Source: Candidatus Onthovivens merdipullorum (GTDB taxonomy: Bacteria > Bacillota_I > Bacilli_A > RFN20 > CAG-826). From it: a stretch of DNA of 53,921 bases. The position numbers and the translations under genes are program-made. The first letter of the stretch is position 1. Each line of letters begins with the position of its first letter. Location: contig JADIMY010000013.1 of NCBI GenBank assembly GCA_017694345.1, positions 1 through 53,921 on the forward strand, given 5' to 3'. Under the pieces are notes generated by a model that was given only the letters and a program-made list of their open reading frames with translations, was not told where the DNA came from and made no database searches. This document shows, piece by piece, positions 5,427-53,921 of the stretch.

Positions 5427-5440
5427 TGTAAGCGCTTACA
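5427..5440 (+). promoter_or_regulatory. Perfect cre / LacI-family operator palindrome TGTAAGCGCTTACA
   Basis: The site matches the cre consensus TGWNANCGNTNWCA at every constrained position. It lies 32 nt upstream of the 5472 ORF and is followed by GCGCGTTTAT. Confidence 0.7.
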
Positions 5441-5471
5441 TTGCGCGTTTATATAGCCAAAAGGAGAATCT

Positions 5472-5804
5472 ATGAGGGGCAAAATATCAGTATTATTCAT
5501 ATCTATATTATTTAGCTCTTTTTCTTTAAATAGTATAAAAAATAAAACTGATAGAACTTATGACACTCAACATAATATCATTAAAGAAATAAGAATAGAT
5601 GAAAATAGTGATACTACTTTAAAGATAGCTTTAGAAGGTACAGTTTTATTAAAAAACGATTATAATGTTTTACCTTTAAAACCAACTGATGATATTGCTA
5701 TTACTAATTATAATGATGCTATTTTTGGTGGTGGAGTTATCATAGATATTTTAATAAGTTTAGGTTTATATTTCTTGTTTAAAAAGAAGAAAAATGTGAA
5801 GTAA
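5472..5804 (+). CDS. Small chimeric ORF: signal peptide, GH3-like internal segment and C-terminal TM helix. Likely a remnant of a GH3 glycosidase gene.
   Basis: ALEGTVLLKNDYNVLPLK...IAITNYNDAIFGGG resembles the conserved linker region of GH3 beta-glucosidases. No catalytic regions are present and the ORF is only 110 aa. Confidence 0.4.
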   Translation: MRGKISVLFISILFSSFSLNSIKNKTDRTYDTQHNIIKEIRIDENSDTTLKIALEGTVLLKNDYNVLPLKPTDDIAITNYNDAIFGGGVIIDILISLGLYFLFKKKKNVK

Positions 5805-5854
5805 TTCACATATAAAATAACAATTTCATTTATTTAAAAGAAAGGAGGTTATAA

Positions 5855-8803
5855 ATGAAAAGAAAAGGTTTACCTGTAGCAATCCTCTGTGGTGGATTAC
5901 TATTCGGATTAGTAAGCGTATCTTTGATGTCTTGTGGTGATGAACAAGTTACTAGATATGCTGTTACATTTAATTATAGTGAAGATTTCACTATTAATGG
6001 GATTAATGAATCTGGGTATGCTGCAAATGAAACAGTATCATTTACTATTACTGTAAACGATAGCACTAAAAAAGTTGGAACTGTTACTAGAGATGGTGAA
6101 ACTTTAACACCTAATGGTACAACTTATTCGTTTGTTATGGGGGAGGCTAATACAAGTATTGTCGTGTCATTAGTACCTAATGTTATCGTTGAAAGTGTAG
6201 AAATTACAGGGAAAAATGGAGCTATTGTTGAGACTGATATTTTTGATAATACACAAATTCAACTTGAAGCAAATGTTGTAACTAATAATGTAATCGAAGG
6301 CGATGATGAAGTTGACTGGAGTTTAAGTGATACAAGCTACGCTAGTATTGAAGATGGTTATTTAATTATCGACAATATGAGAAGTGATGAAGCGAAAGAA
6401 CTCACTGTTACTGCAACTAGTATTTATGATGAAACTAAACATGACAGCATTACCTTTACAGTTAATCACAGTATTATTAATTTAACTACATCTTATGCCA
6501 GATGGAATAAAACTGATGAAGAAGGTGGCGGTGTAGAACAAGATGAACTTGATTTAGTTGACTATAAAACAGACGGTTTAATTATTCAAGATGGGGAAGA
6601 AAATGATTCAGCTTTAATTTTTAATGATATTCATAGTACAAAATTTTATATTGAAACTGAATTTAAAATTACAGGTCTTAGCGCAAATGATAAGTATCCT
6701 AAAATTGGCTTAATGATAGGAACAAACGATAATGGTACATGGAATCAAGCAGGAACAAGACATGGATTTTTCTATTTTGATTCTAACACACAAAATGGCA
6801 ATAAAAATTGGAATACATTTGCTTTTATTGATAGCAATGAAAGTGATGGTTGGAATTGGAATTCTAGTATTGAAAATAGCTCTAGATTCACAGCTGAATC
6901 TGTTACATACAATGAATGGGTCAAAATTGGTCTTATAAGGGATGGAACTGATTATTATTTACTGGCAGGAACTAGTAAAGATAATTATTCAAGCTATGGA
7001 ATTAAGCGAAAAATAAGTTGGAATGGAATTTCTGCTAACACAGAGACATATGCATGGTTTGGAGGTTGGAGAGGCGCTTATGAAGCTAGAAATTTAAAAG
7101 TTCTTTTAGGAACAGAAGTTGAAGAAGAGTTTGGACCTCAATCTTTACAAGTCAAAACAAATAGAACTTTAATTTACAAGGGAAATACTGCGCAAATTTC
7201 AGTTTCCAATAACGATTCATATTTTAATAAAAACTATTTAAAGTATTCATCAAATGATGAAAATATTGCTACTGTTGATGAAAACGGTTTAGTTACTGCT
7301 GCTAGTGATTTAACAGGGACAAAAGAAGTAACTATTAAAGTTACTTACGATAATGGTGTAGAAAATCCATTGACAAGTGAAGTTAATTTAACTATTACAG
7401 ATGATGCTGCAGCAGATATTAGGCTAGATGGATCCTTAGATGACGGGCTACGGAACAGCGTTAATGAACATACATTTAAGTTAAATATTGGTAAAGACAA
7501 TAGTGCTGATGAATATGCGATTTTTTATGGTAAAAAGAATGTAGATGGTCTTTATATTGCTGCCGACTACTATGTTAAAGAATTAAAACATAATAGTAAT
7601 GATTGGTGGCAAAATGATAACTTTGAATGTAGATTTCATAATGAATACGGATCAGAAGGTGGTATAGGTCAGCTTTGGATTAGTACAGCAAATGTAGGCA
7701 GTGCTAATTTTGATGAATTTGCTGTTTCACAACCTGTTTTAAATGAGGAAACAGGATTATATAATATTCATTTTGAAACTGTAACTTATTATAGTAGATT
7801 TGGTATTCAACATGTAACAGAAGATGATTATATTGGATTTAGTGCTGGCATTAATAATACTAAAGGGTGGCATGCTACCTATAACCATGATAATGATACT
7901 TACGGTCATATTCAAAATATGGGTATATATATTACGGAAAATGGTTTAGAAGAAAATATTCCATTTACTTGTAGAGAGCACGAACTTTATTCGATTTACG
8001 ATAAATTACCTACTTGTTTAGAAGCAGGTACCATGCATGAAGAATGTATGCATTGTGACTATTCAGGAGAATCAATAGAGATTCCTGCTAGTGAAGAATA
8101 TCATCAATGGGTAATTACTGAAACCACTACTGAATCAACTTGTTCATCACACGGAACTGGGAGTGCTGAATGTAGTGTTTGTGGTGAGACAACTGCATCA
8201 TTACCTTTAGATCCTAATAAACATACAAAATGGAATGAAGAAGCGGGGATATGTGATGATTGTCATAATTATTATAATGAACCAACTAATTTAGTTGCTG
8301 AAGCATGGACTTTAGGTGGATTTAATAAAAACTTTAATAGTGCTGAGGACTTCAATGTTACGATTAATCTCAACACAAAACTTTCAACTAATTTAGGAGC
8401 GACAATGTATCAAGCTTTTGTTGGAGATATTTGTAGTATTGGATGGGCTAATGGTGGAATCTCTATTAACTCAGGTGCTTCTTCATGGGGGGCTTGGGGT
8501 GATAAAACTGATTATTTAAGAGTTTTAAACAATAAATTTGGAAGTGGTAGTAATAGCGATTTAGTCGAAGCTTATAAAGATGCTGATGTTGAATTAAATG
8601 TTGATCGGAGTACTGAAAGTAATCGTATCACATTAAACGCAATAGTTACATCTAATGTTGAAGGATACGAAGATGGCTTTGCTCAAATTTTATTAATTAG
8701 TGGAAAAACAACCAATAGAAACGGTATCACTGTAACAATAGGTGCTGAAAAAGCAAATGTTACATTTTATAGTGCATATTTAAATGAAGGCAAATTGCTA
8801 TAA
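5855..8803 (+). CDS. Large surface lipoprotein, non-catalytic glycan-binding type (Big_2 + LamG-like + Big_2 + CBM9-like + Cys-rich repeats + C-terminal jelly-roll-like region)
   Basis: RBS AAAGGAGG and lipobox LMSC|G. Big_2 ending TVTATSIYDETKHDSITFTV. LamG-like DKYPKIGLMIGT...IGLIRDGTDYYLLAG. CBM9-like IRLDGSLDDG...GLYIAADYYV...WWQNDNFECRF. No hydrolase motif was recognised. Confidence 0.75.
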   Translation: MKRKGLPVAILCGGLLFGLVSVSLMSCGDEQVTRYAVTFNYSEDFTINGINESGYAANETVSFTITVNDSTKKVGTVTRDGETLTPNGTTYSFVMGEANTSIVVSLVPNVIVESVEITGKNGAIVETDIFDNTQIQLEANVVTNNVIEGDDEVDWSLSDTSYASIEDGYLIIDNMRSDEAKELTVTATSIYDETKHDSITFTVNHSIINLTTSYARWNKTDEEGGGVEQDELDLVDYKTDGLIIQDGEENDSALIFNDIHSTKFYIETEFKITGLSANDKYPKIGLMIGTNDNGTWNQAGTRHGFFYFDSNTQNGNKNWNTFAFIDSNESDGWNWNSSIENSSRFTAESVTYNEWVKIGLIRDGTDYYLLAGTSKDNYSSYGIKRKISWNGISANTETYAWFGGWRGAYEARNLKVLLGTEVEEEFGPQSLQVKTNRTLIYKGNTAQISVSNNDSYFNKNYLKYSSNDENIATVDENGLVTAASDLTGTKEVTIKVTYDNGVENPLTSEVNLTITDDAAADIRLDGSLDDGLRNSVNEHTFKLNIGKDNSADEYAIFYGKKNVDGLYIAADYYVKELKHNSNDWWQNDNFECRFHNEYGSEGGIGQLWISTANVGSANFDEFAVSQPVLNEETGLYNIHFETVTYYSRFGIQHVTEDDYIGFSAGINNTKGWHATYNHDNDTYGHIQNMGIYITENGLEENIPFTCREHELYSIYDKLPTCLEAGTMHEECMHCDYSGESIEIPASEEYHQWVITETTTESTCSSHGTGSAECSVCGETTASLPLDPNKHTKWNEEAGICDDCHNYYNEPTNLVAEAWTLGGFNKNFNSAEDFNVTINLNTKLSTNLGATMYQAFVGDICSIGWANGGISINSGASSWGAWGDKTDYLRVLNNKFGSGSNSDLVEAYKDADVELNVDRSTESNRITLNAIVTSNVEGYEDGFAQILLISGKTTNRNGITVTIGAEKANVTFYSAYLNEGKLL

Positions 8804-8885: not shown

Positions 8886-9893
8886 TTAAGCAGTCGTCCC
8901 TTCAAAATATTGAACATTTACTTTAATATTTATCATTTTTTTATTTAAATTGCCCTTATTAATTAGATTTATCAATATTTCAAAACTTTTTTGAATAATT
9001 TCATCAGCATTAGGAGCTACACTACTAACCCTAATAGGATAGACATTACTTTCTTGAGTGTTGTCGTAGCCGATAATTTTTATTTTTTTGATTCTTTCTT
9101 CAAAATTTTCGTAAATAATTCGTAAAACTTCATAAGCAAGTAAATCGCTAAAACAAAAAATACCATCAATATTTGGGTTTTTATTTAAAGTTTCAATTAA
9201 TTGTGATGAAGCATTATTTGTTCTTGTTCCAATAATTATGTGATCTTGATCTAGATTATAATTTTTAAGATTTAATTCATCTTTAAATCCTTTTAATCTT
9301 TGCTTATCTATTTCTAATTCATTGTGTTCTGTAAAATATAAAAATTCATGAGAATTTTTATTAATTAATGTTTTAGCAGCGAGTTTGCCGCCTTCATAGT
9401 CATCAGAATATATTGAATTTATGTTAGTAGGTCTTCCATCTCGACCAATTAATAAGAGTGGTAGATTAAAACTGTCGATTAAGTTTTTAGCTTCTAATGT
9501 TGGCTCAATAAAAGTTAAAATAGCAGAAACTTGATAAGATATCGCTTTTTTAGCGATATCTATTGATAGATGTCCAATATGCCAACTATCAGCAAAAATC
9601 ATAGCATCATAATTTTTGCTATATAAGTAATTAGATATTTTTTCTAGCATCATCGAATAGTATGGATTAGTTAAATTATCGTAAACAATTGCGATAACAT
9701 CAAGCTTGCCACTTCGCAAAGTTTTAGCTCTTATATCTGGTATATAGCCAAGTTTATCAGCTATTTTTTTTACTTTATTTTTAGTTTTTTGCGAAATGCT
9801 TTTACTATCTTTCAAAGCTTTAGAAACTGAATTTATAGAAATGCCCGCCTTTTTAGCAATGTCTTTTAAAGTAATCTTCTTTTTAGCTACCAT
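8886..9893 (-). CDS. LacI/PurR-family transcriptional regulator
   Basis: N-terminal HTH ITLKDIAKKAGISINSVSKALKD...KVKKIADKLGYIPD, followed by a periplasmic-binding-protein-like sugar-binding core. It is divergent from the 10100 operon. Confidence 0.9.
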   Translation of the reverse strand: MVAKKKITLKDIAKKAGISINSVSKALKDSKSISQKTKNKVKKIADKLGYIPDIRAKTLRSGKLDVIAIVYDNLTNPYYSMMLEKISNYLYSKNYDAMIFADSWHIGHLSIDIAKKAISYQVSAILTFIEPTLEAKNLIDSFNLPLLLIGRDGRPTNINSIYSDDYEGGKLAAKTLINKNSHEFLYFTEHNELEIDKQRLKGFKDELNLKNYNLDQDHIIIGTRTNNASSQLIETLNKNPNIDGIFCFSDLLAYEVLRIIYENFEERIKKIKIIGYDNTQESNVYPIRVSSVAPNADEIIQKSFEILINLINKGNLNKKMINIKVNVQYFEGTTA

Positions 9894-10099: not shown

Positions 10100-12103
10100 A
10101 TGAAAAAATTTTTACTAGCTTTTAGTTTATTAACACTAAGTTCTTTTGGCGTTGTTTCTTGTAAAGATTCAGAAGAAGTGAAAGTATTTGTTGTTACTTT
10201 TGACGTTGATGGTATACAAACAACTGTTAATGTTAATCAAGGTGATTTACTTACTAAACCTGAAGATCCTAAAAAAGACGGATATAATTTTATTGGATGG
10301 TTTACTGACAAGCTTTTAACTGAAGATTCTAAATTCAATTTTGACAATCCTATTAACGAAAATATAACCTTATATGCAGGTTTTGAACCAATTCCGAAAA
10401 CTTATTATACAGTGACTTTTGAACTTAATGGTGGAAGCTTTGTTAATGGTGAAAAAGAAGTGCAAATAGAAGAAGGAATGCTTGTTACTAGACCAAGTGA
10501 TCCTATTAAAGAAGGGTACACCTTTACTAATTGGTATAAAGATAATAATGGTCAAGAACTTTTTGATTTTTTAACTCCAATTAATGAAGATATAACAATC
10601 TATGCAATCTATGAAGAAAATAAAGTTGAAACTAGATATGATGTAGTTGCTTCTAGTTTTAAAGAAGGACATAGAGCAGATTATGCAGTGGACGAGGACA
10701 CCAATTCTTATTGGGAAGCAAACAATAATGAGGAACAAACCTTAACATTTGACTTAGGTGAAGTTAAGTCCGTAAATAAGGTTTCTCAAGAATTCAATGA
10801 TTTATCTACTTGGACATTTACTATAAGTGGATCCATTGATAACCAAAATTATGCAACAGTAATGGAGACTAATAATTCCGTTGGCACAAAATTTGAAAAA
10901 GATATCGAAGGTTATTATCGATATATTAAACTTACGATTGCTCCTGGTGAAAAACTTGCAACTTCTAAAGATTTTATTATTTCTTTTAACGAGTTAAAAG
11001 AAGGTAGCAATTTATCATATGGTATGAAAGGTGTTGCTGATTGCTGGAGTGGTGGATTTGAAAGCGAATTGATGTTTGATGGAGATGAAAATACATATCA
11101 TTGTTGTTCTTCACCACACGAAAATCATTATATGGGTTTTGAAAATGTTGACGGCTTAAATTACTATGTAAAATATATTGAAATAGTTTTTCCGGATGCA
11201 GTAGATCATAAATTTTATTTAGATTATAGAGATGGTCTAACTGGTTCATGGATAACTCCAGAAGGCGGAGATTATACTAATAATATTGAAAATATTAAAA
11301 CAGTTAGAATAGACATAAATAATTATATTAGTGCAGCTTTGCTTCATTATAATTCTAATAGTGCATCAAAATGGCCTGCTATTAGTGAATTTAGAGTAGT
11401 TGGTTTTAAGGAACTTAATAAAGATACAACTCCTAATTTAGTAGATAACAAAAATATTTATGATTTAGGTTCCTTATGCTATATAGATAGAATTAAAGTT
11501 TCCAATATAAGCGAAAATACTAAAGTAGAAATATCAATTGATGGAACGACTTATGAAGAAGTTAATCTAGAAAATACTGAGAACGGCTATATTCTAATAG
11601 ATAAGGAAGCCAGATATTTAAGAGTAAATAGTGATACAACTTTATCAATTTTCGGGACAAAATATGAAAGAAATTTAGCAGTAAATCTTTTACCAATTGC
11701 AACAACTCATTCTAGTGATTCAGGTTTTTGGGAAAACATGATGACAATGAATAAAGATTGTAAAGAAGCTAATACTAGATATTGGTGTACATCAAATTTT
11801 GAAAATACCGATACGATTGAATTAGATTTAAATAATGAGTGTCTTGTTGACAAAATTGTTTATAAGTATCAAGACCCTCTTAGCGAAGGTCAAAATTCAT
11901 ATAAACTAAAGATTGAAGTTAGTAGTGATAAAGAAAATTATGTTACTTTACTTGATACAACAGAAAATGGCGCTTCAGGTCAAGAGTTTATTGCTAATAA
12001 CAATAATAACTTAACTAGGTATATCAAAATAACTACCCAATATGTTGGTGGATGGACAAACTGCAATACTTTAGCAGTTTATGGTTATGGCTCAACTAAA
12101 TAA
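10100..12103 (+). CDS. Lipoprotein with two Listeria-Bacteroides (InlB B-repeat / Flg_new) repeats followed by an array of F5/8 type C (discoidin, CBM32-like) domains
   Basis: Lipobox VVSC|K. Flg_new-like DGYNFIGWFTD...ITLYAGF and EGYTFTNWYKD...ITIYAIY. Discoidin-like A.DEDTNSYWEA...QTLTFDLGEVKSVNKVSQEF is repeated in diverged form. Confidence 0.75.
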   Translation: MKKFLLAFSLLTLSSFGVVSCKDSEEVKVFVVTFDVDGIQTTVNVNQGDLLTKPEDPKKDGYNFIGWFTDKLLTEDSKFNFDNPINENITLYAGFEPIPKTYYTVTFELNGGSFVNGEKEVQIEEGMLVTRPSDPIKEGYTFTNWYKDNNGQELFDFLTPINEDITIYAIYEENKVETRYDVVASSFKEGHRADYAVDEDTNSYWEANNNEEQTLTFDLGEVKSVNKVSQEFNDLSTWTFTISGSIDNQNYATVMETNNSVGTKFEKDIEGYYRYIKLTIAPGEKLATSKDFIISFNELKEGSNLSYGMKGVADCWSGGFESELMFDGDENTYHCCSSPHENHYMGFENVDGLNYYVKYIEIVFPDAVDHKFYLDYRDGLTGSWITPEGGDYTNNIENIKTVRIDINNYISAALLHYNSNSASKWPAISEFRVVGFKELNKDTTPNLVDNKNIYDLGSLCYIDRIKVSNISENTKVEISIDGTTYEEVNLENTENGYILIDKEARYLRVNSDTTLSIFGTKYERNLAVNLLPIATTHSSDSGFWENMMTMNKDCKEANTRYWCTSNFENTDTIELDLNNECLVDKIVYKYQDPLSEGQNSYKLKIEVSSDKENYVTLLDTTENGASGQEFIANNNNNLTRYIKITTQYVGGWTNCNTLAVYGYGSTK

Positions 12104-12110
12104 GTAATTT

Positions 12111-14471
12111 ATGAGATTAAATAGATCTATATTTACTTCTATTTTACTTTTATCAATATACGGACTAAGTTCTTGTAATGATAAAAGTAATAATGAAGAT
12201 TATGAAGTTAAGTTAGAAACTTACGGCGGACAATTATCTAATTTCACAATAACTTTTAAAGAAGGAGAGACTCTTTCTAATTTGCCTATCCCTACTAAAG
12301 AAGGTAATAAATTTATTGGGTGGTATTATGAAGATACATTTGTAACACAAGCTATAGAAGGAGATCCTATTAATAGTGATATAACTTTATATGCAAATTA
12401 TGTTGAAGTTGAATATATAAATTCAATAGATGATTTGAAAAATATAGACCCAAATAAAAACTATGTTTTAAATAATGATTTAGATTTTAATGGTAATGTT
12501 ATTAATCCTATCGGGGATTATAAAACTCCATTTAGTGGATATTTCTTTGGAGAGAATCACAATATTAAAAATTATCAATTACAATATAACAAGTATAATG
12601 GTTTATTTGGTTATGTAACTGGAAAAATTTATGATTTAAGTGTTATAACAGATATTAGTTATGTTGCTGATAATTCAAATTTTGTTGGACTTTTAGCAGG
12701 TTATTTATATAAAGGAGAGGTTTTTAATTCAAGGTGTGAAGGACAAATTATTATTAATTCATCAAGTGAAAATGGTCAAAGTTATATTGGTGGATTAATT
12801 GGCGAAAATGAATCTGGTAATATCAATAGGTGTTATAGTAATGTTTCTATTTCTAACACAAATGATAATAGTAGTTATGTAGGAGGATTAGTTGGATATA
12901 ACGGTGGAGGAAAAGTTTTTGAATCAATTATTAAAAATAGTTATGCTTATAACTCTACAATTAATGTTACTTCAAACAAAGAAACCTCCTCGAGCTATGT
13001 AGGCGGCATTAGTGGATATAACTTTGGAACAATAGAAAAATGTTTTACTTTTGATATGAATTTAATTAGTAAAACAAGCGAATATTATGCTTTTTGTGGC
13101 GGAATATGTGGCGATAATAATGGCGGTCTTATTAAAGATTCATTTAGTAGTTCTAATGTTAAGGTAATTAGTGATAGTGGAACCACTTTTAGAGGTTTGA
13201 TAATGGGTCGAAATTTTGTTTCAACAAAAACACCATTAAGCGGGACATATTCTAATTGTTATGGCTATGAAGGAAGTAAGATAAGCTATAGTTTAAGCAA
13301 TAAAGAATCTTTATTAACAAGCAGGCATTATCAAACAGTTGTACCTTTAGCTAGTTATGAAGAAATAAGTAAAAAAGACTTTTTTATAAATACTTTATCT
13401 TTGAATGAATTTTTAGTTAAGGACGATTATTATCCATCACTAGGTAGTTCATTTTTTAAGATTAAAGATGTTGATGATTTAGGTTTACCTTCTAATCCAA
13501 TTGAAATAAAATCAATTACTGATTTAATGAATATTGATACAAATAAATCATATATATTAAAGAATGATTTAGATTTAAGAGGTAAAGATTTTATTTCAAT
13601 AGGAACTTATGATTTACCTTATTATGGAGTATTTGATGGTAATAACCACACAATTAAATTTGATGTTACTAAAGATAATTCATTAGGATATTCTTCTTTA
13701 TTTGGCTATTTAAATGGAACAATAAAAAATTTAAATACTATCGCAAATATCGATTTAATATCAAATAATAATTTACAGCATTATGCTAGTGGAATGGTTA
13801 GTTATGCTACTAATAGTTACATAAATAATTGTAATAGCGAAGTAAATATAGACATAAGTTCAAATGGAGTTATTGCTAGTGGTATAGTTTCTTATAGTGA
13901 GGATAGTGAAATTTATGGTTGTTCTTCAAGTGGAATTATTAATACAAACTCAACCAATTATTCAAATTATGCTTCAGGAATTGTAGGAATAAATGATGAA
14001 GGGTTGATTAAAGAATGTTTTAGTATCATTGATTTAAGCTTAAAAAGTGAAGAGATTGCTATTAGTGGAGGAGCTGTTGCAAAGAATTTAGGCAAAGTTT
14101 ACGATTCTTATTCGATTAGCAATATTAAAACACTAGGAGCTATAAACGAAACTAATATTGGTGGTTTTGTAGGGTTAAACAAAAATGGTTATATTTATAA
14201 TTCTTATTCGATTAGTAATTTTGAGAAAAATAACGAGGCAAATCATGATTTAATTGGTGGATTTGGTGGAGTTAACATTGATGGCAATGTATCAAATAGT
14301 TATTTTCAAGTAAACGAAGGAATAAAATACAGTTTTGGGAGTAGCGAAATTGATGTAGAAATTACTAAAGTGAATGATGAAGAGCTTAAAACTTTATCAA
14401 CCTTATTAGGTGATAAATTTGTTGATAAAACTGATGGTAGACCACATTTAAAGATTGAGGATAATTTATGA
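12111..14471 (+). CDS. Lipoprotein with one InlB B-repeat and two tandem GLUG-motif beta-helix-like modules
   Basis: Lipobox LSSC|N and GNKFIGWYYED...ITLYANY. Each of the two modules opens with I.SI.DL.NID.NK.Y.L.NDLD...G.F.G..H.I, followed by repeated (I/V)GG(L/I)(I/V)G..N.G segments. Confidence 0.7.
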   Translation: MRLNRSIFTSILLLSIYGLSSCNDKSNNEDYEVKLETYGGQLSNFTITFKEGETLSNLPIPTKEGNKFIGWYYEDTFVTQAIEGDPINSDITLYANYVEVEYINSIDDLKNIDPNKNYVLNNDLDFNGNVINPIGDYKTPFSGYFFGENHNIKNYQLQYNKYNGLFGYVTGKIYDLSVITDISYVADNSNFVGLLAGYLYKGEVFNSRCEGQIIINSSSENGQSYIGGLIGENESGNINRCYSNVSISNTNDNSSYVGGLVGYNGGGKVFESIIKNSYAYNSTINVTSNKETSSSYVGGISGYNFGTIEKCFTFDMNLISKTSEYYAFCGGICGDNNGGLIKDSFSSSNVKVISDSGTTFRGLIMGRNFVSTKTPLSGTYSNCYGYEGSKISYSLSNKESLLTSRHYQTVVPLASYEEISKKDFFINTLSLNEFLVKDDYYPSLGSSFFKIKDVDDLGLPSNPIEIKSITDLMNIDTNKSYILKNDLDLRGKDFISIGTYDLPYYGVFDGNNHTIKFDVTKDNSLGYSSLFGYLNGTIKNLNTIANIDLISNNNLQHYASGMVSYATNSYINNCNSEVNIDISSNGVIASGIVSYSEDSEIYGCSSSGIINTNSTNYSNYASGIVGINDEGLIKECFSIIDLSLKSEEIAISGGAVAKNLGKVYDSYSISNIKTLGAINETNIGGFVGLNKNGYIYNSYSISNFEKNNEANHDLIGGFGGVNIDGNVSNSYFQVNEGIKYSFGSSEIDVEITKVNDEELKTLSTLLGDKFVDKTDGRPHLKIEDNL

Positions 14472-17302: not shown

Positions 17303-17306
17303 TGAT

Positions 17307-18095: not shown

Positions 18096-18109
18096 TGTAA
18101 GCGCTTTCA
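18096..18109 (+). promoter_or_regulatory. cre / LacI-type operator TGTAAGCGCTTTCA
   Basis: The site fits TGWNANCGNTNWCA. It lies 38 nt upstream of the ATG at 18147 and just downstream of a candidate -10 (CATAAT, 18085-18090). GCGCGTTTAT follows it, as at site 5427. Confidence 0.65.
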
Positions 18110-18146
18110 ATTTATTAAGCGCGTTTATTTAGGAGGAAAATTGAAA

Positions 18147-46601: not shown

Positions 46602-47006
46602 ATGAAATTGAAATGGATTATTTTATTATTACCTATATTAATGCTTTTTTCTTGCAATGGCGAGACGACTAATTCTAATACCACAAACGATGTTGAATTT
46701 AAATTTCAGGTAATAGCTAATGTCGATTACTATAACGGAAATAAAAATTATGTTATGTATGATGAAGAGAACGGATACTACGCTGATGTTAATTTAGGTA
46801 CTAATTTTTATATTCCTTTTAGATATAGTCCATTAAATTATCCTAATAGAGATATTGAGTTTTATATTGAAGATGAAACTATTTGTAGAATGGATACTTC
46901 TAATATTGGTAGAGTTAATACCTTAAAAAGAGGCGTTACAACTGTTTCTATCGAACCAACTTATTTTCCAGATTATAGAGTTGATATTAGAGTAAGAGTT
47001 TTATGA
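46602..47006 (+). CDS. Small lipoprotein with a Big_2-like module
   Basis: Lipobox LFSC|N. YIEDETICRMD...GVTTVSIEP parallels YEIEDETVCEID...GLTTVNARY in the next gene. Confidence 0.55.
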   Translation: MKLKWIILLLPILMLFSCNGETTNSNTTNDVEFKFQVIANVDYYNGNKNYVMYDEENGYYADVNLGTNFYIPFRYSPLNYPNRDIEFYIEDETICRMDTSNIGRVNTLKRGVTTVSIEPTYFPDYRVDIRVRVL

Positions 47007-47944
47007 GAAAAATTAAAAGCTTAATTTTCACCTTTTTAATCTTTTCAATACTTCCGATCATAGGGAGTTGTAAAGATGATAAATCTATTGATTTAGATAA
47101 ACTGAATCTATATTTTGGCGATATTAAATTATTTAAAAATCAATATGAAGAATTACCACTAAGACCAACTAGCAATAATCCTTTATTTAATGATTATGAA
47201 GATATAATTTACGAAATAGAAGATGAAACAGTTTGTGAAATCGATGAAAATGGTATCGTCCATTATTTAAATTCTGGCTTAACTACAGTAAATGCGCGAT
47301 ATGCAAATAAAGATTATTCATTTTTAGTGTATTGCCAAGATACTTATGGTTATGAAAGCGGTGTTAAATACATCGTTAATCAAATTGAAAAGAATTTAGT
47401 TAATGATGAGTGTACATTATTTATTGGTGATTCTTTTTTTGAATTTTGGAGAAACGGAAATGCCGGTGTTTTATTTAAAAATGATTTTAAAGGTTATAAC
47501 GCTTTTAATTTTGGAATTAGTGGAAGTGAAACTCACCATTGGCGCCCTATAATTTATAATGTAATCTCTGAACTTAATCCAAAAAATGTTGTTATCAATA
47601 TTGGAATAAACAATATTAATAATAGCCATGAATCATTTAGCAAAGTTAGTAAAAATTTATTAATGCTTTTTGAAGATATACATTATGTTTTTCCTAACGC
47701 AGATATTTATTATTATTCGTTAATTAAAGGGACAGGTGGTTTTGCTAGTAGTTATCAAGTTTCCAGTGAAACAAATAAATTTATTCAAAACTATATGTTA
47801 AATCGAAATTATTTACATTATTTAGATTTAAATAGTTTAATGATAGACGATTTAGACACCTATTTATTAGGTGATGGACTTCATCCTAGTGAGAAGTGTT
47901 ATCGTTTATTTAAACAACTCGCTATTGAGAATATCGAGTTTTAA
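47003..47944 (+). CDS. Lipoprotein SGNH/GDSL-family hydrolase (probable carbohydrate acetylesterase) with an N-terminal Big_2-like module
   Basis: Lipobox IIGSC|K. SGNH blocks: LFIGDSFFEFW (block I), GISGSET (II), INIGINNI (III) and GDGLHPS (V). Confidence 0.75.
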   Translation: MRKIKSLIFTFLIFSILPIIGSCKDDKSIDLDKLNLYFGDIKLFKNQYEELPLRPTSNNPLFNDYEDIIYEIEDETVCEIDENGIVHYLNSGLTTVNARYANKDYSFLVYCQDTYGYESGVKYIVNQIEKNLVNDECTLFIGDSFFEFWRNGNAGVLFKNDFKGYNAFNFGISGSETHHWRPIIYNVISELNPKNVVINIGINNINNSHESFSKVSKNLLMLFEDIHYVFPNADIYYYSLIKGTGGFASSYQVSSETNKFIQNYMLNRNYLHYLDLNSLMIDDLDTYLLGDGLHPSEKCYRLFKQLAIENIEF

Positions 47945-47946
47945 TT

Positions 47947-48414
47947 ATGAAAAAAATAATTTTAATTATTTGTTCTATATTTAGTTTAGTCAGCTGTAAC
48001 AATGAAGAAACCAACAATTTTGAAGAACCTTTTATTGATGATAGTTTTTTAAATGGAACAAGAAATATATTAGCTAGCGATTTTTATCAATATGAAGGCA
48101 ATTATTATATTTATTATTATTCTTTAATGTGTGAACCTTGTAAAGATTTAAAAGAATATATTTCTCCCTTTATAGGTGATAATGAAAATGTCTATACACT
48201 TTGCGTCCAAAGTATAAGTGATGATTTATTTTATACATTTAAACAAAAAGAAGGGAATAAAGAATACGAAGTGTATGTAAATGAAATGCTTGGTAAAAGT
48301 TCGATTGAAGATACTTATTTAATAGGAACGCCAACTTTATATGAAATAAATGAACATAAATTAATTAATGTTTATTTAGGATATCAAAGTATTTACAAAT
48401 TCTTAGGAGAATAG
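47947..48414 (+). CDS. Thioredoxin-fold lipoprotein with a CxxC motif
   Basis: Lipobox LVSC|N. The CEPC motif is encoded at 48130-48141, within YYYSLMCEPCKDLK. A candidate cis-Pro loop, LIGTPTLYE, lies at the expected distance. Confidence 0.55.
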   Translation: MKKIILIICSIFSLVSCNNEETNNFEEPFIDDSFLNGTRNILASDFYQYEGNYYIYYYSLMCEPCKDLKEYISPFIGDNENVYTLCVQSISDDLFYTFKQKEGNKEYEVYVNEMLGKSSIEDTYLIGTPTLYEINEHKLINVYLGYQSIYKFLGE

Positions 48415-48416: not shown

Positions 48417-50594
48417 ATGAGTATTAAGTTCGATAAAGATAAAAAATTGTTTCACCTATTTAATAAAAACTTTAGTTATTATTTTTATATTAATGATGCA
48501 AACATTTTGGAACATTTATATTTTGGAGCTTTTTTAAAAAATATTGATATTAATGAAATTACTAATTTAGGAGATTCTTGGGGTAGACACTATTTAACTA
48601 AAGATAATAAAGAAGAAGTTTATAAATCTCACTTCACTAAAGATATGAGCTATTTAGAACTTGGTTCTTTTGGAACTGTAGATAAAAGACCAGCGCCAAT
48701 TATAATTAAAAATAAAAATAATTCATATTATACCGATTTTAAATTTTTAAAATTTAAGATCTATCATAATTTAGAAGAAAAAGAAGATTTTCCATTAGTA
48801 TTTTCTAAATCAAAAGTCGATCGTTTAGAACTAACACTTAAAGAGGTTACTCGTGATATTTATTTGAAACTAAATTATGTGGTTTTAGATGATGTTAATA
48901 CAATAATTAGATATGTAAAAATAATCTCTAAAGAAGAAGGGAATTTTCTAACTAAAGTGATGTCGTTCGAACTAGATTTAGCTAAACAAAATTATAATTT
49001 AATTCATTTTTATGGTGATTGGTCGTTTGAAAGGAACCCAGAACTAATAAAAATTAATCATGGGTATACTCGCTTTTCATCATTCTTTGGTAGATCTGGT
49101 CATGAAGAAAATCCTAGCATAATTTATTTAAGAGATGATACAACTGAAGATTATGGTGAGTGTTTCTTAGTTAATTTAATTTACAGTGGGAATTTTTTAA
49201 TTGAAAATTATGTCGATCGTTACGACAATTTAAGAATTTTATGTGGAATTAACGATGAAGCCTTAGAAATACCATTAAAGAAAAATGAAGAAATTTTATT
49301 GCCACAAGTAGCATTAACTTATTCTAATAATGGCTTAACTGCTTTATCTCAATCTTCTCATAATTTTATTAGAGAACATGTTATTAGAAGTAAATTTGTT
49401 CATAAAGAAAGACCAATTTTATTAAATTCATGGGAAGGTTGTTATTTAGATTTTAATACGCAAAAAATTAAAAGATACATCGAAGGAGCTTATAAAGTAG
49501 GGGCAAATTTATTTGTTTTAGATGATGGTTGGTTTACGAATAGAAATACTGATTTTAATGGTTTAGGAGACCGGGAAATTGAAAAGGAAAAAATTAATTT
49601 AAAAGAATTGATTGATTATGCTCATTCTTTAAATATTAAATTTGGTCTATGGTTTGAACCAGAAATGATAAATCTTGGGACCGAATTATATAAGGTTCAC
49701 CCAGAATATGCTTTAAGAAAGGCTGGAGTAGACATTGGCTTATATCGACATCAATTAGTTCTTGATACATCAAACGATGAAGTTATCGATTATTTGATTA
49801 ATAAGATAAGTTATTTCCTTGATAATTTTAATATTGATTATATAAAGTGGGATCACAATAGATATTTGGCGGATGTTTATTCAAAAATTCATCCTAATGC
49901 AAGCGAAGGTTACTTATACCATTTAATTACTTTAGGTGTATATAAATTATTTAATCGTTTAACAAAAAAATATCCTGATGTTTTATTTGAGGGGTGTGCT
50001 AGTGGCGGAGGTAGATTCGATTTAGGCATGCTTTACTATACTCCACAAATTTGGTGCAGTGATGAAACTGATCCTATTCAAAGAACATACATTCAATACG
50101 GAACTAGTTTTGTTTATCCACTTTCAACAATGGGTGCCCATATTTCTAAAAACCAAATCACTTCTTATAAAACAAAAGGAGAAATTGCTCTACTAGGAAC
50201 ATATGGACTTGAACTTGATCCATATACTTTAAAAGATGACGAAATTCAAGAAATTAAAGAAATCAATGGAATTTTTAAAGAATTTCATCTTGATACAGTG
50301 GTAAATGGAGATTTATATAGATTATATAATCCATTTACTTCAAATTTATTCGGTGTAAATGTTGTTAGTAAAGATAAAAGAAAAGCAATTTTACTATTAA
50401 TAAATTATCGAAAAGATAATAACAAACATCGTTATATTAAGTTCAAAGGACTTGATGAAGGTAAAGTCTACAAAACAAATTTAGAAAATAAGTGCTATTC
50501 TGGAGACTTTTTAATGAAAAACGGTCTAAATTTGTCAAAGTGGCTCAATGAATTTGAAAGTTTCTTTGTAACTTTAAAAGAAATAGACAAATAA
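48417..50594 (+). CDS. Cytoplasmic alpha-galactosidase, GH36
   Basis: The N-terminus FDKDKKLFHLFNKNFSYYFYI...LEHLYFG is typical of the family. LNSWEGCYLDFN, FVLDDGWF, DYIKWDHNR and CASGGGRFD are canonical GH36 blocks. Confidence 0.9.
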   Translation: MSIKFDKDKKLFHLFNKNFSYYFYINDANILEHLYFGAFLKNIDINEITNLGDSWGRHYLTKDNKEEVYKSHFTKDMSYLELGSFGTVDKRPAPIIIKNKNNSYYTDFKFLKFKIYHNLEEKEDFPLVFSKSKVDRLELTLKEVTRDIYLKLNYVVLDDVNTIIRYVKIISKEEGNFLTKVMSFELDLAKQNYNLIHFYGDWSFERNPELIKINHGYTRFSSFFGRSGHEENPSIIYLRDDTTEDYGECFLVNLIYSGNFLIENYVDRYDNLRILCGINDEALEIPLKKNEEILLPQVALTYSNNGLTALSQSSHNFIREHVIRSKFVHKERPILLNSWEGCYLDFNTQKIKRYIEGAYKVGANLFVLDDGWFTNRNTDFNGLGDREIEKEKINLKELIDYAHSLNIKFGLWFEPEMINLGTELYKVHPEYALRKAGVDIGLYRHQLVLDTSNDEVIDYLINKISYFLDNFNIDYIKWDHNRYLADVYSKIHPNASEGYLYHLITLGVYKLFNRLTKKYPDVLFEGCASGGGRFDLGMLYYTPQIWCSDETDPIQRTYIQYGTSFVYPLSTMGAHISKNQITSYKTKGEIALLGTYGLELDPYTLKDDEIQEIKEINGIFKEFHLDTVVNGDLYRLYNPFTSNLFGVNVVSKDKRKAILLLINYRKDNNKHRYIKFKGLDEGKVYKTNLENKCYSGDFLMKNGLNLSKWLNEFESFFVTLKEIDK

Positions 50595-50611: not shown

Positions 50612-52948
50612 ATGAAAAAATCTATTTTAGTTTGTTCTCTTGTTCTAACTGGTTTAAGTCTTAGCCTTGTAAGTTGTAAAGATGAACCTACGACAGAAGC
50701 AGAAGTTTTTACAGTTAAAGATGTAACTGTTAATCAAAATCAAACTGTTGATATTCAATTTGATACTTCAGATCCATCTTTAACTGAAAATGTTGAATAT
50801 TATTTTGAAGGAAGTAATATTCGTATTAGCGGAAATCAAGTTACTGGTTTAGTAGATGACACAGTTACAGAAGTAACCGCATTTTCAGGAGATTATGAAG
50901 ATACCTTCACTGTTACTGTTTTACCAAATTATGGCACTTTAACAGTTGATGATATTACTTTATATGCTGAAGGACCTGGAGTTGCAGCAAATCCTAGATT
51001 CTCAAATCCAAAATATGAAGAAGATGTAATTTATACATTCACTAGTGATGCTATTAAAGAAGAAGATGGAGTTTTTTACGCTTTAAAAGCAAATGAAACT
51101 GTTGAAGTTAGTGCGAAAACAAGTCACTTAGAAACTTCATTTACAGTTACAACTAAGGAATTTACAGATTATGCTGATGCTGTTAGAAGTAGAGTAACTT
51201 CATGGGAAGAAGCTGGTTCTCCTACAGGTGAAACTTTATTTATTGGCGATTCATTCTTTGATACACAATTCTGGAGCAACTTTTATACTACTTTTGGGAA
51301 ATATAGCGCTAGAACATTTGGTATAAGTGCTACAACTTCTACTGATTGGGAATATTGGCTTGACGATTTAGTTTATCCTCAAAACCCAAAAAATTTAGTA
51401 ATGCATATTGGTACAAATAATATTTATGATGATCATAAAAATGCTGAGCAAACAATTACTGAAGTTACTAGATTAATTGAAACAATTCATAACAAATTAC
51501 CTGATACTAAAATTTATTATTTTGGTATTGAACCAAGAACTTATGGCGCTAACGGTAGAAGTGTTGCTGATACAATTACTTTATTAAACGAAATAAATAC
51601 TGGTATCAAATCTTATATAAAAGATACTGAAAATGTTACATATCTTGATTCACCAGCATTATGCTATAACACTGATGGAACTGTTAAATCTGACTTCTTT
51701 AGAGATGGAACTCATCCAAAACTTGAAAACTATGATTACTACCTTGATTTATTGAATGAAGCAGGATGTGTAATTGATTTAAACGAAAATTTATCCCGTG
51801 ATATTCCTGATTTTACTAGAACTCAAGCTGATACAGTAGGTCAAAGTCAACAAATGATGTATTTAGGTGCTCCATTAAGTCGTGGTTTTATTTTAGAAGG
51901 GAAATTTGATTTAAATGGAAAAGGAAACAATGCTCACATCGAATTTAGATTTGGGACAGATTCTAATAATCGTTTCTTATTATGGGACAATGATAATAAC
52001 AATCAATTTGGATTAGGCTGGTGTGATAAAGGTGTCTATCAAAATCCAACAAATCAAGATTATACATTTGTTAATGGAGAGACACTAACAATATCATATA
52101 AGATTGTTGCATCTAGCAAAAATGTATATTTTTATATTAATGATGTTTTACTTGCTATATATGTTAATATTCCTGATGGCGCTAAAGATTTTTATTTAGG
52201 ATCTGAAAGCTGCGATATCAAATTTTACGATTTAAAAGCCATGACTTTAGTAGACGATAAAGATGAGTATTATAATGCTTTTGATACATTAAATTTAGAT
52301 AAATACGAAAATATGACTGGTAAGGAAGGGGTTGTTATTGGGCATAAATCTTCATCAATGATTGCAAGGCCAAGTGATATTGACACTGAATCATATATAG
52401 ACCCTAGCTCTACTTTTAATATCAGTGGTGCTGATAATGGCGCAGGTGGCATTTATACAGGAATTAGAGACAATGTTGTCGTTTATAATGGATTAACCTT
52501 ATTAACTGGTGATTGGAAGGTTAGTTATGATGTTCAAATATTAAATTCAGATTTTGAGCCTATAGAAGCTCCTAGTGATGCAGCGTTAGGAAGCGGCAAT
52601 TATTTTTTCTATTATGGTGTTAGTACCGCTGAAAATGAACCAAAGATGCGGGAACGCTTACAACTTTGGTGGAGGAAAACTGAGAGCGCAGTAAAAATTG
52701 GCACTCAATTGGGTGGAACCGATTTTGGTTTAGGTTTAACTGGTTACGAAAATGATTCATTTACTGATACATCATTTCATATTGAGCTCGAAAGAGAAGG
52801 TGGAGAAGTTTTCTATACAATTAATATTGGTGATGCTAGTGCCAAAGCTACTTTAACGATTGATGCAAACACTCCATTATCTATTCGGTTTGGAGCTGAA
52901 AATTTAAACGCCCAAATTTCTAATTTTCACTTCACATTAGTAGAATAA
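50612..52948 (+). CDS. Lipoprotein SGNH-family esterase with N-terminal Ig-like modules and two C-terminal LamG-like modules
   Basis: RBS AAAGGAG and lipobox LVSC|K. SGNH blocks: LFIGDSFFDTQFW, GISATTSTDW, HIGTNNIYDD and RDGTHP. LamG-like segment: FRFGTDSNNRFLLWD...VYFYINDVLLAIY. Confidence 0.75.
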   Translation: MKKSILVCSLVLTGLSLSLVSCKDEPTTEAEVFTVKDVTVNQNQTVDIQFDTSDPSLTENVEYYFEGSNIRISGNQVTGLVDDTVTEVTAFSGDYEDTFTVTVLPNYGTLTVDDITLYAEGPGVAANPRFSNPKYEEDVIYTFTSDAIKEEDGVFYALKANETVEVSAKTSHLETSFTVTTKEFTDYADAVRSRVTSWEEAGSPTGETLFIGDSFFDTQFWSNFYTTFGKYSARTFGISATTSTDWEYWLDDLVYPQNPKNLVMHIGTNNIYDDHKNAEQTITEVTRLIETIHNKLPDTKIYYFGIEPRTYGANGRSVADTITLLNEINTGIKSYIKDTENVTYLDSPALCYNTDGTVKSDFFRDGTHPKLENYDYYLDLLNEAGCVIDLNENLSRDIPDFTRTQADTVGQSQQMMYLGAPLSRGFILEGKFDLNGKGNNAHIEFRFGTDSNNRFLLWDNDNNNQFGLGWCDKGVYQNPTNQDYTFVNGETLTISYKIVASSKNVYFYINDVLLAIYVNIPDGAKDFYLGSESCDIKFYDLKAMTLVDDKDEYYNAFDTLNLDKYENMTGKEGVVIGHKSSSMIARPSDIDTESYIDPSSTFNISGADNGAGGIYTGIRDNVVVYNGLTLLTGDWKVSYDVQILNSDFEPIEAPSDAALGSGNYFFYYGVSTAENEPKMRERLQLWWRKTESAVKIGTQLGGTDFGLGLTGYENDSFTDTSFHIELEREGGEVFYTINIGDASAKATLTIDANTPLSIRFGAENLNAQISNFHFTLVE

Positions 52949-52965
52949 TTATTTGAAAAATTTAT

Positions 52966-52996
52966 ATAGGTGACCAAAAAGGTCACCTATATTTTT
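52966..52996 (+). terminator. Intrinsic terminator
   Basis: ATAGGTGACC-AAAAA-GGTCACCTAT followed by ATTTTTG. Confidence 0.8.
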
Positions 52997-53000
52997 GATT

Positions 53001-53921
53001 ATGAAAGTAATTTATTTTAAAGAAAAAGAAACTAAATCTCCTGGAATTTGGGAATTTGCACTTAATGAAGATGATTATTCTAATTATTTGAAGAAAGAGC
53101 CAGTTTATGGAAAAGGAATAATAAAATATTCTGAAGGCAGTATATATAAAGGAGATTTATTTTTTGATGGAAAAACATTTAATAAAATAGGATTTGGTGA
53201 GCAAGACTTTTTAGAAAGTTCATTAAATAACTTAGACGCTGGTGGGAAAGATAATACTATTTTATATAAATATGTTGGTCAATATGACTATCGACATGGT
53301 GATTGGATATACGGCTTAGGCACTTTATATTTCTTAAATAAAGATAAAGAACCAGATAGTTTTATTAATGGAAAGTTTTTAGGATTAGAGTGTACAAAAA
53401 ACATCAAAATAAATAAAAATGTTAGACTTCTGCAAGGTTTTAGTAAAAAAATGCAGATAAAACAATTAATGCATAAAAATTTAGTTAATAAAATTTTATG
53501 CATTAATAACAAGATAACAAAAACTTTATTTATTGGGGATAGTTACTTTGAGTTTATAGGAAATCGATTTAATATTTTTAAAGATTCCATTAATTTAGGT
53601 ATTGGAGGGGCTAAATTTTATAACTTTATTAATTTAGAAAATAGTTTATTAATTAAATTTAGTGCTAGTCGAGTATTAATTAATTTAGGTTTTAATGATA
53701 TTCATAGTGGGTTTTCTAATAGACAAATAGAATATCAATTAAATAAATTATTAAGTTTTTTATTTAAAAAAATGAAAGTTAAAGAAATTTATATTTTAAC
53801 TATTATTAATGCACCAAGTTTTAATCATCTAATAAATCAAGAAATTGACTTTAATAAATATTTGTTTAAAAAATATAGAGAAAATAAATATATACATATT
53901 ATAGACACAGCAGATTTATTT
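53001..53921 (+). CDS. Partial CDS (3' end outside the window): cytoplasmic SGNH-family hydrolase with an N-terminal MORN-like repeat region
   Basis: The frame is open from ATG 53001 to the window edge (307 codons) and is absent from the ORF track because it has no stop. Motifs: YGKGIIKYSEGSIYKGDLFFDGK and YVGQYDYRHGDWIYGLGTLYF (MORN-like), then LFIGDSYFEF, GIGGAKF and LGFNDI (SGNH blocks). No clear RBS, so the start is uncertain. Confidence 0.6.
   Translation, partial: MKVIYFKEKETKSPGIWEFALNEDDYSNYLKKEPVYGKGIIKYSEGSIYKGDLFFDGKTFNKIGFGEQDFLESSLNNLDAGGKDNTILYKYVGQYDYRHGDWIYGLGTLYFLNKDKEPDSFINGKFLGLECTKNIKINKNVRLLQGFSKKMQIKQLMHKNLVNKILCINNKITKTLFIGDSYFEFIGNRFNIFKDSINLGIGGAKFYNFINLENSLLIKFSASRVLINLGFNDIHSGFSNRQIEYQLNKLLSFLFKKMKVKEIYILTIINAPSFNHLINQEIDFNKYLFKKYRENKYIHIIDTADLF

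Follow-up and report, generated by a model that had tools for sequence, protein, structure and literature searches.

Genes and operators of the locus

We analyzed a stretch of DNA 53,921 nucleotides long (contig JADIMY010000013.1, "the window" below), most of which, from position 5427 to its right end, a first-pass annotation made from the letters of the sequence had described as one 48-kb glycan-utilisation locus built around lipoproteins. Genes are referred to here by their start positions, and the coordinates of all features are listed in Table 1. The GC content of the window is 28%, and because its long open reading frames (ORFs) are all unbroken under translation table 11, UGA is a stop codon here. 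The operon structure of the locus is Firmicute-like; between gene 26037 and the window end there are 20 genes, all on the + strand, with gaps of -18 to +142 nt.

The glycoside hydrolase (GH) and carbohydrate esterase (CE) assignments of the annotation were borne out by Pfam, which gives five GH43 proteins, a GH2, a GH36, a SASA esterase and three SGNH proteins (53001 weak). The five GH43 proteins (27849, 39134, 41347, 42464 and 44136) score 92.8-187.2 bits against PF04616, whose gathering cut-off of 32.2 bits was used for these calls, and all five carry the motifs D-P, [IL]-D-x and E-G-[PS], placed plausibly for catalytic residues when judged by position only. Against Cellvibrio Arb43A and further endo-arabinanases, protein 41347 scores 1e-41 to 1e-28, against xylosidases just 1e-12, and its top 14 matches among PDB sequences are all arabinanases. 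The other four match 4QQS and 3KST, and 4QQS is an H. orenii GH43 with alpha-L-arabinofuranosidase activity (PMC4356313). The GH2 protein 35264 has as its closest solved GH2 7XYR from B. thetaiotaomicron (4.6e-88), followed by 7SF2 and a Streptomyces beta-D-galactofuranosidase (9J6M/9J6N), with glucuronidases at 1e-18. It retains an NE acid/base motif (PLNESWG) and a TEFG nucleophile motif (LLTEFGG), and its nearest relative and motifs place it in GH2 group III (GH2_18 and GH2_19), for which only furanosidase activities are reported (PMC12243196). The SASA esterase 26037 has no sequence relative among solved structures, and none of the proteins scanned received an equivalog-level NCBIfam name.

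The transporter has the make-up of a CUT1 importer: a solute-binding protein (SBP), two permeases and a MalK-type ATPase with a C-terminal regulatory domain. The SBP matches just SBP_bac_1 in Pfam, and its start is likely at 31637, because a 96% identical homologue is 529 aa long. The ATPase 36999 scores 430.8 bits as UgpC and 345.8 bits as MalK, both under the equivalog cut-offs, and contains OB_MalK and TOBE_2. It is about twice the normal length, with ~340 extra residues that include a ~48-aa N-terminal extension, a ~95-aa insert before LSGGQ and a ~190-aa helical insert between OB_MalK and TOBE_2; this extra length is kept in its orthologues (678-799 aa), Clostridia-type loci included. The GH2 gene lies inside the transporter operon, and in essentially all related loci the gene for the RDD-family membrane protein 30329 sits between those for the 29173-type lipoprotein and the SBP. 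A part for RDD proteins in the ABC import of sugars is not known to us. When homologues were searched by word matching, the RDD protein gave one hit and 29173 nine. The hairpin directly 3' of the 29173 gene is a possible terminator or attenuator, which would let 29173 be expressed more strongly than the genes downstream; a scan of the window for promoter and terminator consensus sequences gave no enrichment over shuffles.

Neither Pfam nor NCBIfam has a family for lipoprotein 29173. An AlphaFold2 (AF2) model built from 10 sequences has a pLDDT of 83.5, and Foldseek matched it to CBM66 (TM 0.66, rmsd 3.8), to Big_2-CBM56 and to legume lectins, and also, at the level of chains, to the G. stearothermophilus arabinanase AbnA. 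The ConA-like Domain4 of AbnA binds arabinan (PMC9110388). On its model, 29173 is best read as a candidate surface glycan-binding protein. Searched with a profile of its lectin domain, 18141 contains two copies and 5855 one. Among 1.84 billion representative proteins the domain was found in 59 at E<=1e-30, of which about 45 are full-length lipoproteins of 360-395 aa; it also occurs in giant multi-domain proteins. The 5855 protein has in addition a segment (residues 704-807, nt 7964-8275) with nine Cys in CxxC, CxxxxxC and CxxxxxxxxCxxC spacings that resemble those of zinc ribbons; it matches no family and is unusual in an extracellular lipoprotein.

Four palindromes of the LacI/cre operator type lie 12-45 nt 5' of + strand genes, namely 5472/5855, 18141, 29173 and the SBP gene, so that each stands shortly before a lipoprotein gene. 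Two of them are identical copies of TGTAAGCGCTTACA, and those at 18096-18109 and 29123-29136 are one- and two-mismatch versions of it. No further site with up to three mismatches occurs in the window, and shuffled sequences predict 0 where 4 were found. The 18096 site is at the same position in related loci (denoted by L numbers, see below) L002, L003, L006, L020, L031 and L051, and the 31597 site in L001, L005, L006, L013, L020, L022, L049, L051 and L053. Since four operators of the same type head its units, the sequence from 5427 onward is tied into one regulon, be it under a local LacI or CcpA. The local LacI gene, at 20768, is split in a run of nine G residues (21262-21270), which yields ORFs of 180 and 148 aa; the close relatives L001 and L051 read GGGAGGGG at this site and have an intact 331-aa LacI. 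The frameshift may mean that the gene is a pseudogene, with derepression, that it is phase-variable, or that the homopolymer was misread in sequencing.

Table 1. Features of the window, with the evidence on which each assignment was based.
Coordinates	Strand	Feature	Basis or remark
4087-4407	-	transposase-like fragment, 106 aa	left boundary scar
4881-4954	-	tRNA-Thr	left boundary
5427-5440	intergenic	operator palindrome TGTAAGCGCTTACA, LacI/cre-type	upstream of 5472/5855
5472-5804	+	GH3 remnant, 110 aa; piece of GH3 C-terminal domain and C-terminal hydrophobic tail	PF01915, below threshold
5855-8803	+	large surface lipoprotein; Big_2, ConA-like lectin domain, Cys-rich segment	paralogue of 18141
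8886-9893	-	LacI-family regulator, intact	Pfam
10100-12103	+	lipoprotein; two Flg_new repeats, F5/8 type C (CBM32-like) domains	Pfam, lipobox
12111-14471	+	lipoprotein, adhesin-like; Flg_new and GLUG repeats	Pfam, lipobox
14468-17302	+	exported protein; three F5/8 type C domains, divergent GH13-like half-barrel	signal without lipobox
17307-18032	+	small exported protein, 241 aa	no family match
18096-18109	intergenic	operator-type palindrome TGTAAGCGCTTTCA	upstream of 18141
18141-20654	+	surface lipoprotein; Big_2, two to three ConA-like lectin domains	syntenic in Bacilli-type loci
20768-21761	+	locus LacI regulator, split by +1 frameshift	Pfam; relatives' sequence
21765-22430	-	lipoprotein, 221 aa, 67% identical in L001; no assigned function	lipobox rule
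22427-24322	-	exported protein, 631 aa; HExxH motif (HEYAH, nt 23222-23236)	no family match
24450-25880	-	MatE-family transporter	syntenic in Bacilli-type loci
26037-27842	+	lipoprotein SASA (CE6-like) acetylesterase; C-terminal beta-sandwich region	universal cassette
27849-29030	+	predicted cytoplasmic GH43, 4QQS/3KST-like	Pfam, PDB sequence search
29123-29136	intergenic	operator-type palindrome TGTAAGCGGTTTCA	upstream of 29173
29173-30264	+	universal lipoprotein; disordered linker, Ig-like domain, ConA-like jelly roll	AF2 model
30292-30320	+	hairpin, 12-bp stem, T-rich tail	directly 3' of 29173 gene
30329-31516	+	RDD-family membrane protein; four predicted transmembrane segments, ~215-aa loop domain after the first	
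31597-31610	intergenic	operator palindrome TGTAAGCGCTTACA	upstream of SBP gene
31637-33226	+	ABC solute-binding lipoprotein, SBP_bac_1	Pfam
33264-34337	+	ABC permease 1	BPD_transp_1
34319-35257	+	ABC permease 2	BPD_transp_1
35264-37012	+	predicted cytoplasmic GH2, nearest 7XYR (GH2_19, furanosidase group)	Pfam, PDB sequence search
36999-39137	+	MalK/UgpC-type ABC ATPase, 712 aa; extended N-terminus, two large helical inserts	Pfam, NCBIfam
39134-41338	+	predicted cytoplasmic GH43, 4QQS-like; ~450-aa C-terminal extension	Pfam, PDB sequence search
41347-42477	+	lipoprotein GH43, alpha-1,5-L-arabinanase type	Pfam, PDB sequence search, lipobox
42464-44134	+	lipoprotein GH43 with C-terminal domain	GH43 type of universal cassette
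44136-46601	+	lipoprotein GH43, 4QQS-like; C-terminal beta-sandwich modules	paralogue of 39134
46602-47006	+	small lipoprotein; domain in common with N-terminus of 47003	sequence comparison, lipobox rule
47003-47944	+	lipoprotein SGNH/GDSL esterase	Pfam, lipobox
47947-48414	+	small lipoprotein, 155 aa; CEPC (CxxC, thioredoxin-like) motif at nt 48130-48141	
48417-50594	+	predicted cytoplasmic GH36, alpha-galactosidase type	Pfam
50612-52948	+	lipoprotein SGNH esterase; large C-terminal beta-sandwich modules	Pfam, lipobox
53001-53921	+	predicted cytoplasmic SGNH-like protein, cut by window end	weak family match

Related loci and lineage

An alignment-based scan with the SBP, covering one genome per GTDB species, gave 46 loci, all of them in metagenome-assembled genomes (MAGs) from gut, rumen or faeces. 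Their sources include Coprobacillus sp. CAG:826, Firmicutes bacterium CAG:449, Bacillales UBA6380, Anaeroplasmataceae and 'uncultured Bacilli' and, at 43-47% SBP identity, MAGs labelled Clostridia, Eubacteriales, Oscillospiraceae and Faecousia; the GC content of the related loci runs from 26% to 54%. The labels of L011 ('Alistipes onderdonkii') and L009 ('Oscillospiraceae bacterium') clash with the Bacilli-type content of these loci and are likely binning or naming errors. A Bacteroidota origin of the window, which the Bacteroides source of 7XYR and 3KST and the 'Alistipes' label might suggest, was rejected in view of that mislabelling, the lack of SusC/D, the GC content of 28% and the Firmicute-like operon structure. 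An exact look-up of the GH36 protein gave no recorded copy. Public assemblies also hold relatives (on contigs of at most 475 kb) that are ~98% identical over the shared core and 90-95% identical over the upstream part.

Comparison of all window proteins with the related loci by tblastn splits synteny into three layers, and we therefore regard the 48-kb span as a conserved core plus additions that are specific to a strain or species. Synteny of this core (18141-46601) extends across gut and rumen MAGs of Bacilli and Clostridia (46 species-level genomes). Nearly all 46 loci contain a universal cassette made up of the 29173-type lipoprotein, the RDD protein, the SBP, the two permeases, the long ATPase and the 42464-type GH43, of which the SASA esterase is often also a part. 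To this the low-GC Bacilli loci add GH2, the 39134-type GH43, the arabinanase-type GH43 (41347), LacI, MatE and the 18141/5855-type lipoprotein, and the arabinanase-type GH43 is nearly universal among them. The Clostridia-type loci add a GH3 and use an AraC regulator, and matching operator sites, which low-GC related loci have at the same positions, are missing from these AraC-bearing loci. No related locus fetched has a counterpart of the four-gene block 10100-18032 or of genes 46602, 47947 and 53001, and GH36 is linked to the locus in just two of these loci. Gene 22427 is absent from two close relatives (~98% identical elsewhere), where only remnants of 60-74 aa are left, and this marks a strain-variable insertion at 22558-24463 between LacI and MatE.

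Is the 48-kb span then really one locus, as had been proposed? The part of that proposal that stands is the linkage of the sequence from 5427 onward by the four operators; the part that does not is its uniformity, since the span is a mosaic in which 10100-18032 and several downstream genes are without counterpart. It is conceivable, though we doubt it, that the 48 kb are independent modules (an adhesin/CBM32/GH13-like island at 10100-18032, the ABC-GH43 core and an esterase/GH36 tail) and that their adjacency reflects insertion history. The genes without counterpart, the rare linkage of GH36, the strain-variable insertion, the lack of an operator upstream of 10100 or 26037, and the presence at the left edge of a transposase-like fragment, a GH3 remnant and a tRNA gene all speak for such modules. 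Independent modules are opposed by the single operator motif, found ahead of 5472/5855, 18141, 29173 and the SBP operon but at no other place in the window, by the lectin domain that 5855, 18141 and 29173 have in common, and by the tail genes, which overlap the core genes or lie next to them on the same strand (gaps of 0-52 nt).

The annotation had also called a catabolic locus of this size unusual for a Mollicute-like genome, and this is not supported on either count. To judge from the synteny of its core in 46 species-level genomes, the locus is common in this lineage, and classical Mollicutes read UGA as Trp, whereas UGA is a stop codon in the window. By its sequence features the window fits the low-GC class Bacilli, with greatest similarity to the GTDB order RFN20, and not the classical Mollicutes. 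CAG-826 and CAG-449 are families of RFN20, in which UGA is a stop codon, GC content is ~30% and genomes are 1.5-1.7 Mb (PMC7301438). RFN20 is reported to be without sortases; CAG-826 and CAG-288 are predicted to be without peptidoglycan, and CAG-449 and CAG-631 are predicted to be walled (PMC10868615). The nearest named relatives of the window span both CAG:826 (predicted wall-less) and CAG:449 (predicted walled).

Predicted lipid anchoring

Lipoboxes were called with a PROSITE PS51257-style rule that asks for a K or R within the first 7 residues, six non-charged residues and the pattern [LIVMFWSTAG]2-[LIVMFYSTAGCQ]-[AGS]-C with the Cys at positions 15-35. The strict rule is passed by 14 coding sequences: 5855, 10100, 12111, 18141, 21765 (- strand), 26037, 29173, 41347, 42464, 44136, 46602, 47003, 47947 and 50612. 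The ABC binding protein (31622/31637) is a 15th lipoprotein with the sequence L-A-N-C, in which Asn at -1 is atypical, and its lipobox Cys is invariant in 31 homologues. The earlier count of about 15 lipobox proteins thus agrees with 14 strict cases plus the SBP, and lipidation of these ~15 proteins is predicted from the rule; the genes lgt and lsp are absent from the window. In a control with 236 Met-initiated ORF suffixes from all six frames only the true N-termini matched, so AT-rich composition does not explain the lipoboxes; that they might be a by-product of such composition is ruled out by this control together with their conservation in loci of 37-49% GC. Among orthologues the lipobox is kept in all scorable 29173-type proteins (46/46), in all SBPs (49/49) and SASA esterases (23/23), and in 19 of 23 41347-type and 23 of 28 42464-type proteins.

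The five enzymes that had been named as cytoplasmic (27849, 39134, 35264, 48417 and 53001) do all lack an N-terminal signal, and signals are rare or absent in their orthologues (27849, 0/7; GH2, 0/20; 39134, 2/18). Four further, predicted exported proteins (5472, 14468, 17307 and 22427) have signal-like N-termini without a lipobox Cys. No LPXTG sortase signal occurs in the window, and Pfam finds no SLH, dockerin or wall-binding domain among the window ORFs. The locus has no anchoring device other than the predicted lipid anchors, which to judge from the orthologues are inherited with the cassette. The suggestion that lipid anchors here replace wall scaffolds is not supported as an adaptation: the mid-GC MAGs labelled Clostridia, Oscillospiraceae and Faecousia have the same lipoboxes, so that anchoring is a trait of the cassette and not a replacement that followed wall loss. 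It looks ancestral to the cassette rather than an adaptation to wall loss, and it would still be the sole display route in a lineage without sortases. This suggests that membrane-lipid tethering is the only surface-display device here, which fits a lineage reported to be without sortases and, in some families, without peptidoglycan (PMC10868615).

Predicted mechanism, substrate and known systems

We consider it likely that the span is a Gram-positive-type polysaccharide utilisation locus (gpPUL) that works on the following substrate by the following mechanism. Lipid-anchored 29173, 18141 and 5855, with Ig-like and ConA-like lectin modules, would hold glycan at the membrane surface, and 10100, 12111 and 14468, with CBM32-like domains and repeat modules, may take part in this capture. 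There the arabinanase-type GH43 41347 and the GH43s 42464 and 44136 would cut and trim the glycan, while the CE6-like SASA protein 26037 and the SGNH proteins 47003 and 50612 would de-esterify it. Oligosaccharides would then be bound by SBP 31637, carried by the two permeases and powered across by the long ATPase 36999, and the GH2 35264, the GH43s 27849 and 39134, the GH36 48417 and the SGNH-like 53001 would finish them to monosaccharides in the cytoplasm. The four LacI/cre-type operators would control expression, with the local LacI frameshifted here and the LacI at 8886 intact. This sequence of capture, surface depolymerisation, import and cytoplasmic finishing, as first proposed in the annotation, agrees with the predicted localisation of every component, and the pattern is kept in the orthologous loci. 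The substrate would most likely be arabinan, arabino-oligosaccharides or another acetylated plant glycan decorated with alpha-L-arabinofuranose; the arabinan or arabinofuranose-decorated side chains proposed earlier fit the arabinanase-like GH43 41347 and the furanosidase-group GH2.

Several points weigh against this reading. No cultured organism carries the locus, and neither the families GH51, GH127, GH146 and GH27, which are typical of arabinan systems, nor arabinose catabolic genes are present in the window. The three to four acetyl-type esterases fit acetylated xylan, rhamnogalacturonan I (RG-I) or mannan better than arabinan, and the universal cassette (42464-type GH43 and SASA, with GH3 in Clostridia-type loci) is without arabinanase and more hemicellulose-like. 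GH2_19 also holds beta-D-galactofuranosidases, 29173 matches, at a low sequence identity of 10-15%, a fold that is very common, and the operator is an optimal catabolite-responsive element (cre) for CcpA, which may report catabolite repression and not locus-specific control. Finally, if the source organism were walled, its membrane-tethered enzymes would mainly see oligosaccharides.

The cassette and the esterases raise the question of whether the same gpPUL mechanism could act on acetylated (arabino)xylan or xylo-oligosaccharides, with the GH43s as beta-xylosidases or arabinoxylan arabinofuranohydrolases and the esterases as acetyl-xylan esterases. GH43 is a polyspecific family, and the GH3 remnant at 5472 corresponds to intact GH3 genes at the same flank of related loci (e.g. 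L002, L003). We nevertheless think xylan unlikely as the target: Pfam finds no GH10, GH11, GH30, GH8 or GH5 endo-xylanase and no GH67 or GH115 in the window, 41347 fits arabinanases about 30 orders of magnitude better than xylosidases, and the GH2 belongs to the furanosidase group. That same GH2 has the galactofuranosidases 9J6M/9J6N among its relatives, and galactofuranosidases occur in GH43 too (PMC11627007), so the target could instead be microbial or fungal glycans that contain galactofuranose, or type II arabinogalactan, and not plant arabinan. The GH36 and the CBM32-like F5/8C domains of 10100 and 14468 would suit such a target. It seems to us very improbable, however, because the arabinanase-type GH43 is so widespread in Bacilli-type loci, because GH30_5, GH35, GH42, GH53 and a recognisable exo-beta-1,3-galactanase are missing, and because the F5/8C proteins lie in the block that is missing from all related loci fetched.

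How does the predicted arabinan-type gpPUL compare with known systems? The first-pass annotation had described PUL-like logic without SusC/D. The absence of SusC/D was confirmed, in that no ORF of at least 100 aa has a TonB-dependent receptor, Plug, SusC or SusD domain by Pfam, as a Sus-like PUL would; such logic is the gpPUL concept, which has been published for Roseburia and Eubacterium rectale (Sheridan et al. 2016, PMC5320581). All three elements of the gpPUL definition are present, namely a polysaccharide-degrading enzyme (by sequence), a system that transports carbohydrates and a regulator of transcription. Like the gpPULs of Roseburia and E. rectale, the locus has GHs and CEs in a cluster, an ABC importer whose SBP is a lipoprotein, LacI-type regulators and no SusC/SusD, and it too would pass from extracellular cleavage through import to cytoplasmic exo-hydrolysis. 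It differs in that several Roseburia enzymes have LPXTG (PMC5320581), whereas here LPXTG is lacking and the enzymes are predicted to be lipobox-anchored, and in its addition of a lectin-like lipoprotein, an RDD protein, an ATPase of about double length and a GH2 within the transporter operon.

The arabinan systems of G. stearothermophilus T-6 (AbnA, AbnEFJ, AbnB, AbfA/B, Abp) and B. subtilis (AbnA/Abn2, AraNPQ-MsmX, AbfA/Abf2) likewise combine an extracellular GH43 endo-arabinanase that releases arabino-oligosaccharides, CUT1 import of these and intracellular arabinofuranosidases of GH43 and other families (PMC4194401), and Geobacillus AbnA also has ConA-like arabinan-binding modules (PMC9110388). 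In contrast to these, the window has no GH51 domain of the AbfA type by Pfam and no GH27 or GH127, so that debranching would fall to the GH2 and the 4QQS-like GH43s; its arabinanase is a small predicted lipoprotein and not a secreted multimodular enzyme, its binding modules are separate lipoproteins, and it has several acetyl-type esterases. The Sus-like PULs of Bacteroidota (e.g. the B. thetaiotaomicron arabinan PUL) are similar in having surface lipoprotein enzymes and glycan-binding lipoproteins beside the transporter and exo-glycosidases inside, but here there is no SusC/SusD, outer membrane or periplasm, uptake would be by an ABC system across a single membrane, and regulation is of the LacI type and not by hybrid two-component systems (HTCS) or extracytoplasmic function (ECF) sigma factors. 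The mixed-linkage glucan locus of Blautia producta (PMC10318527) has an endo-enzyme that is anchored to the cell, an ABC importer whose SBP is predicted to be lipid-anchored, and finishing enzymes in the cytoplasm; its substrate and enzyme families are different, and just the SBP is reported to be lipid-anchored there, against ~15 proteins predicted here. A search of one literature library found no paper that characterises this locus or the carbohydrate-active enzymes of RFN20. The locus is real, coherent and uncharacterised, and is a variation on the gpPUL design, not a system of a new kind. What sets it apart are the predicted exclusive lipid anchoring of ~15 proteins, the lectin-lipoprotein/RDD pair, the double-length ATPase and the GH2 within the transporter operon.

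A bolder interpretation, which we offer tentatively and do not expect to be correct, is that the universal cassette of seven to eight genes is an unrecognised type of glycan importer, in which the 29173 lectin and the RDD protein would be obligate accessory subunits, a single-membrane analogue of SusD or a surface glycan-binding protein (SGBP), and that horizontal exchange has carried it between gut Clostridia and Bacilli that have reduced genomes and may be wall-less. If so, such Bacilli could be primary degraders of plant arabinan despite RFN20 genomes of only ~1.5-1.7 Mb. Bacilli of the RFN20 type and their relatives are widespread in the guts of humans and livestock but uncultured, and published metabolic models describe them as reduced organisms that produce acetate and hydrogen (PMC7301438). 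At 28-48 kb, a conserved locus under operator control would take up ~2-3% of a genome of 1.5-1.7 Mb, which suggests heavy investment in plant-glycan foraging. The proposed substrate could serve as a selective carbon source for culturing these bacteria, and the unannotated ConA-like domain family, the RDD protein that accompanies the transporter and the MalK-type ATPase with its insertions are targets for biochemistry.

A few minor features deserve mention. In the block 10100-18032, the 10100 and 14468 proteins have a homologous region of ~500 aa in common (28.6% identity), and the GH13-like domain of 14468 aligns with just the first half of GH13 barrels (1e-11). CBM32-like F5/8C domains, such as those of these two proteins, typically bind galactose. 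Gene 47947 encodes an apparent surface thioredoxin-like protein inside the glycan operon, with no Pfam match and no counterpart in related loci. Upstream of the locus an AAA_14/DUF4143 ATPase is encoded at 355-1686 (+), and just outside it, at 2482-3588 (-), lies a gene for the UDP-galactopyranose mutase Glf (267 bits), which makes it probable that the organism produces glycoconjugates with galactofuranose.

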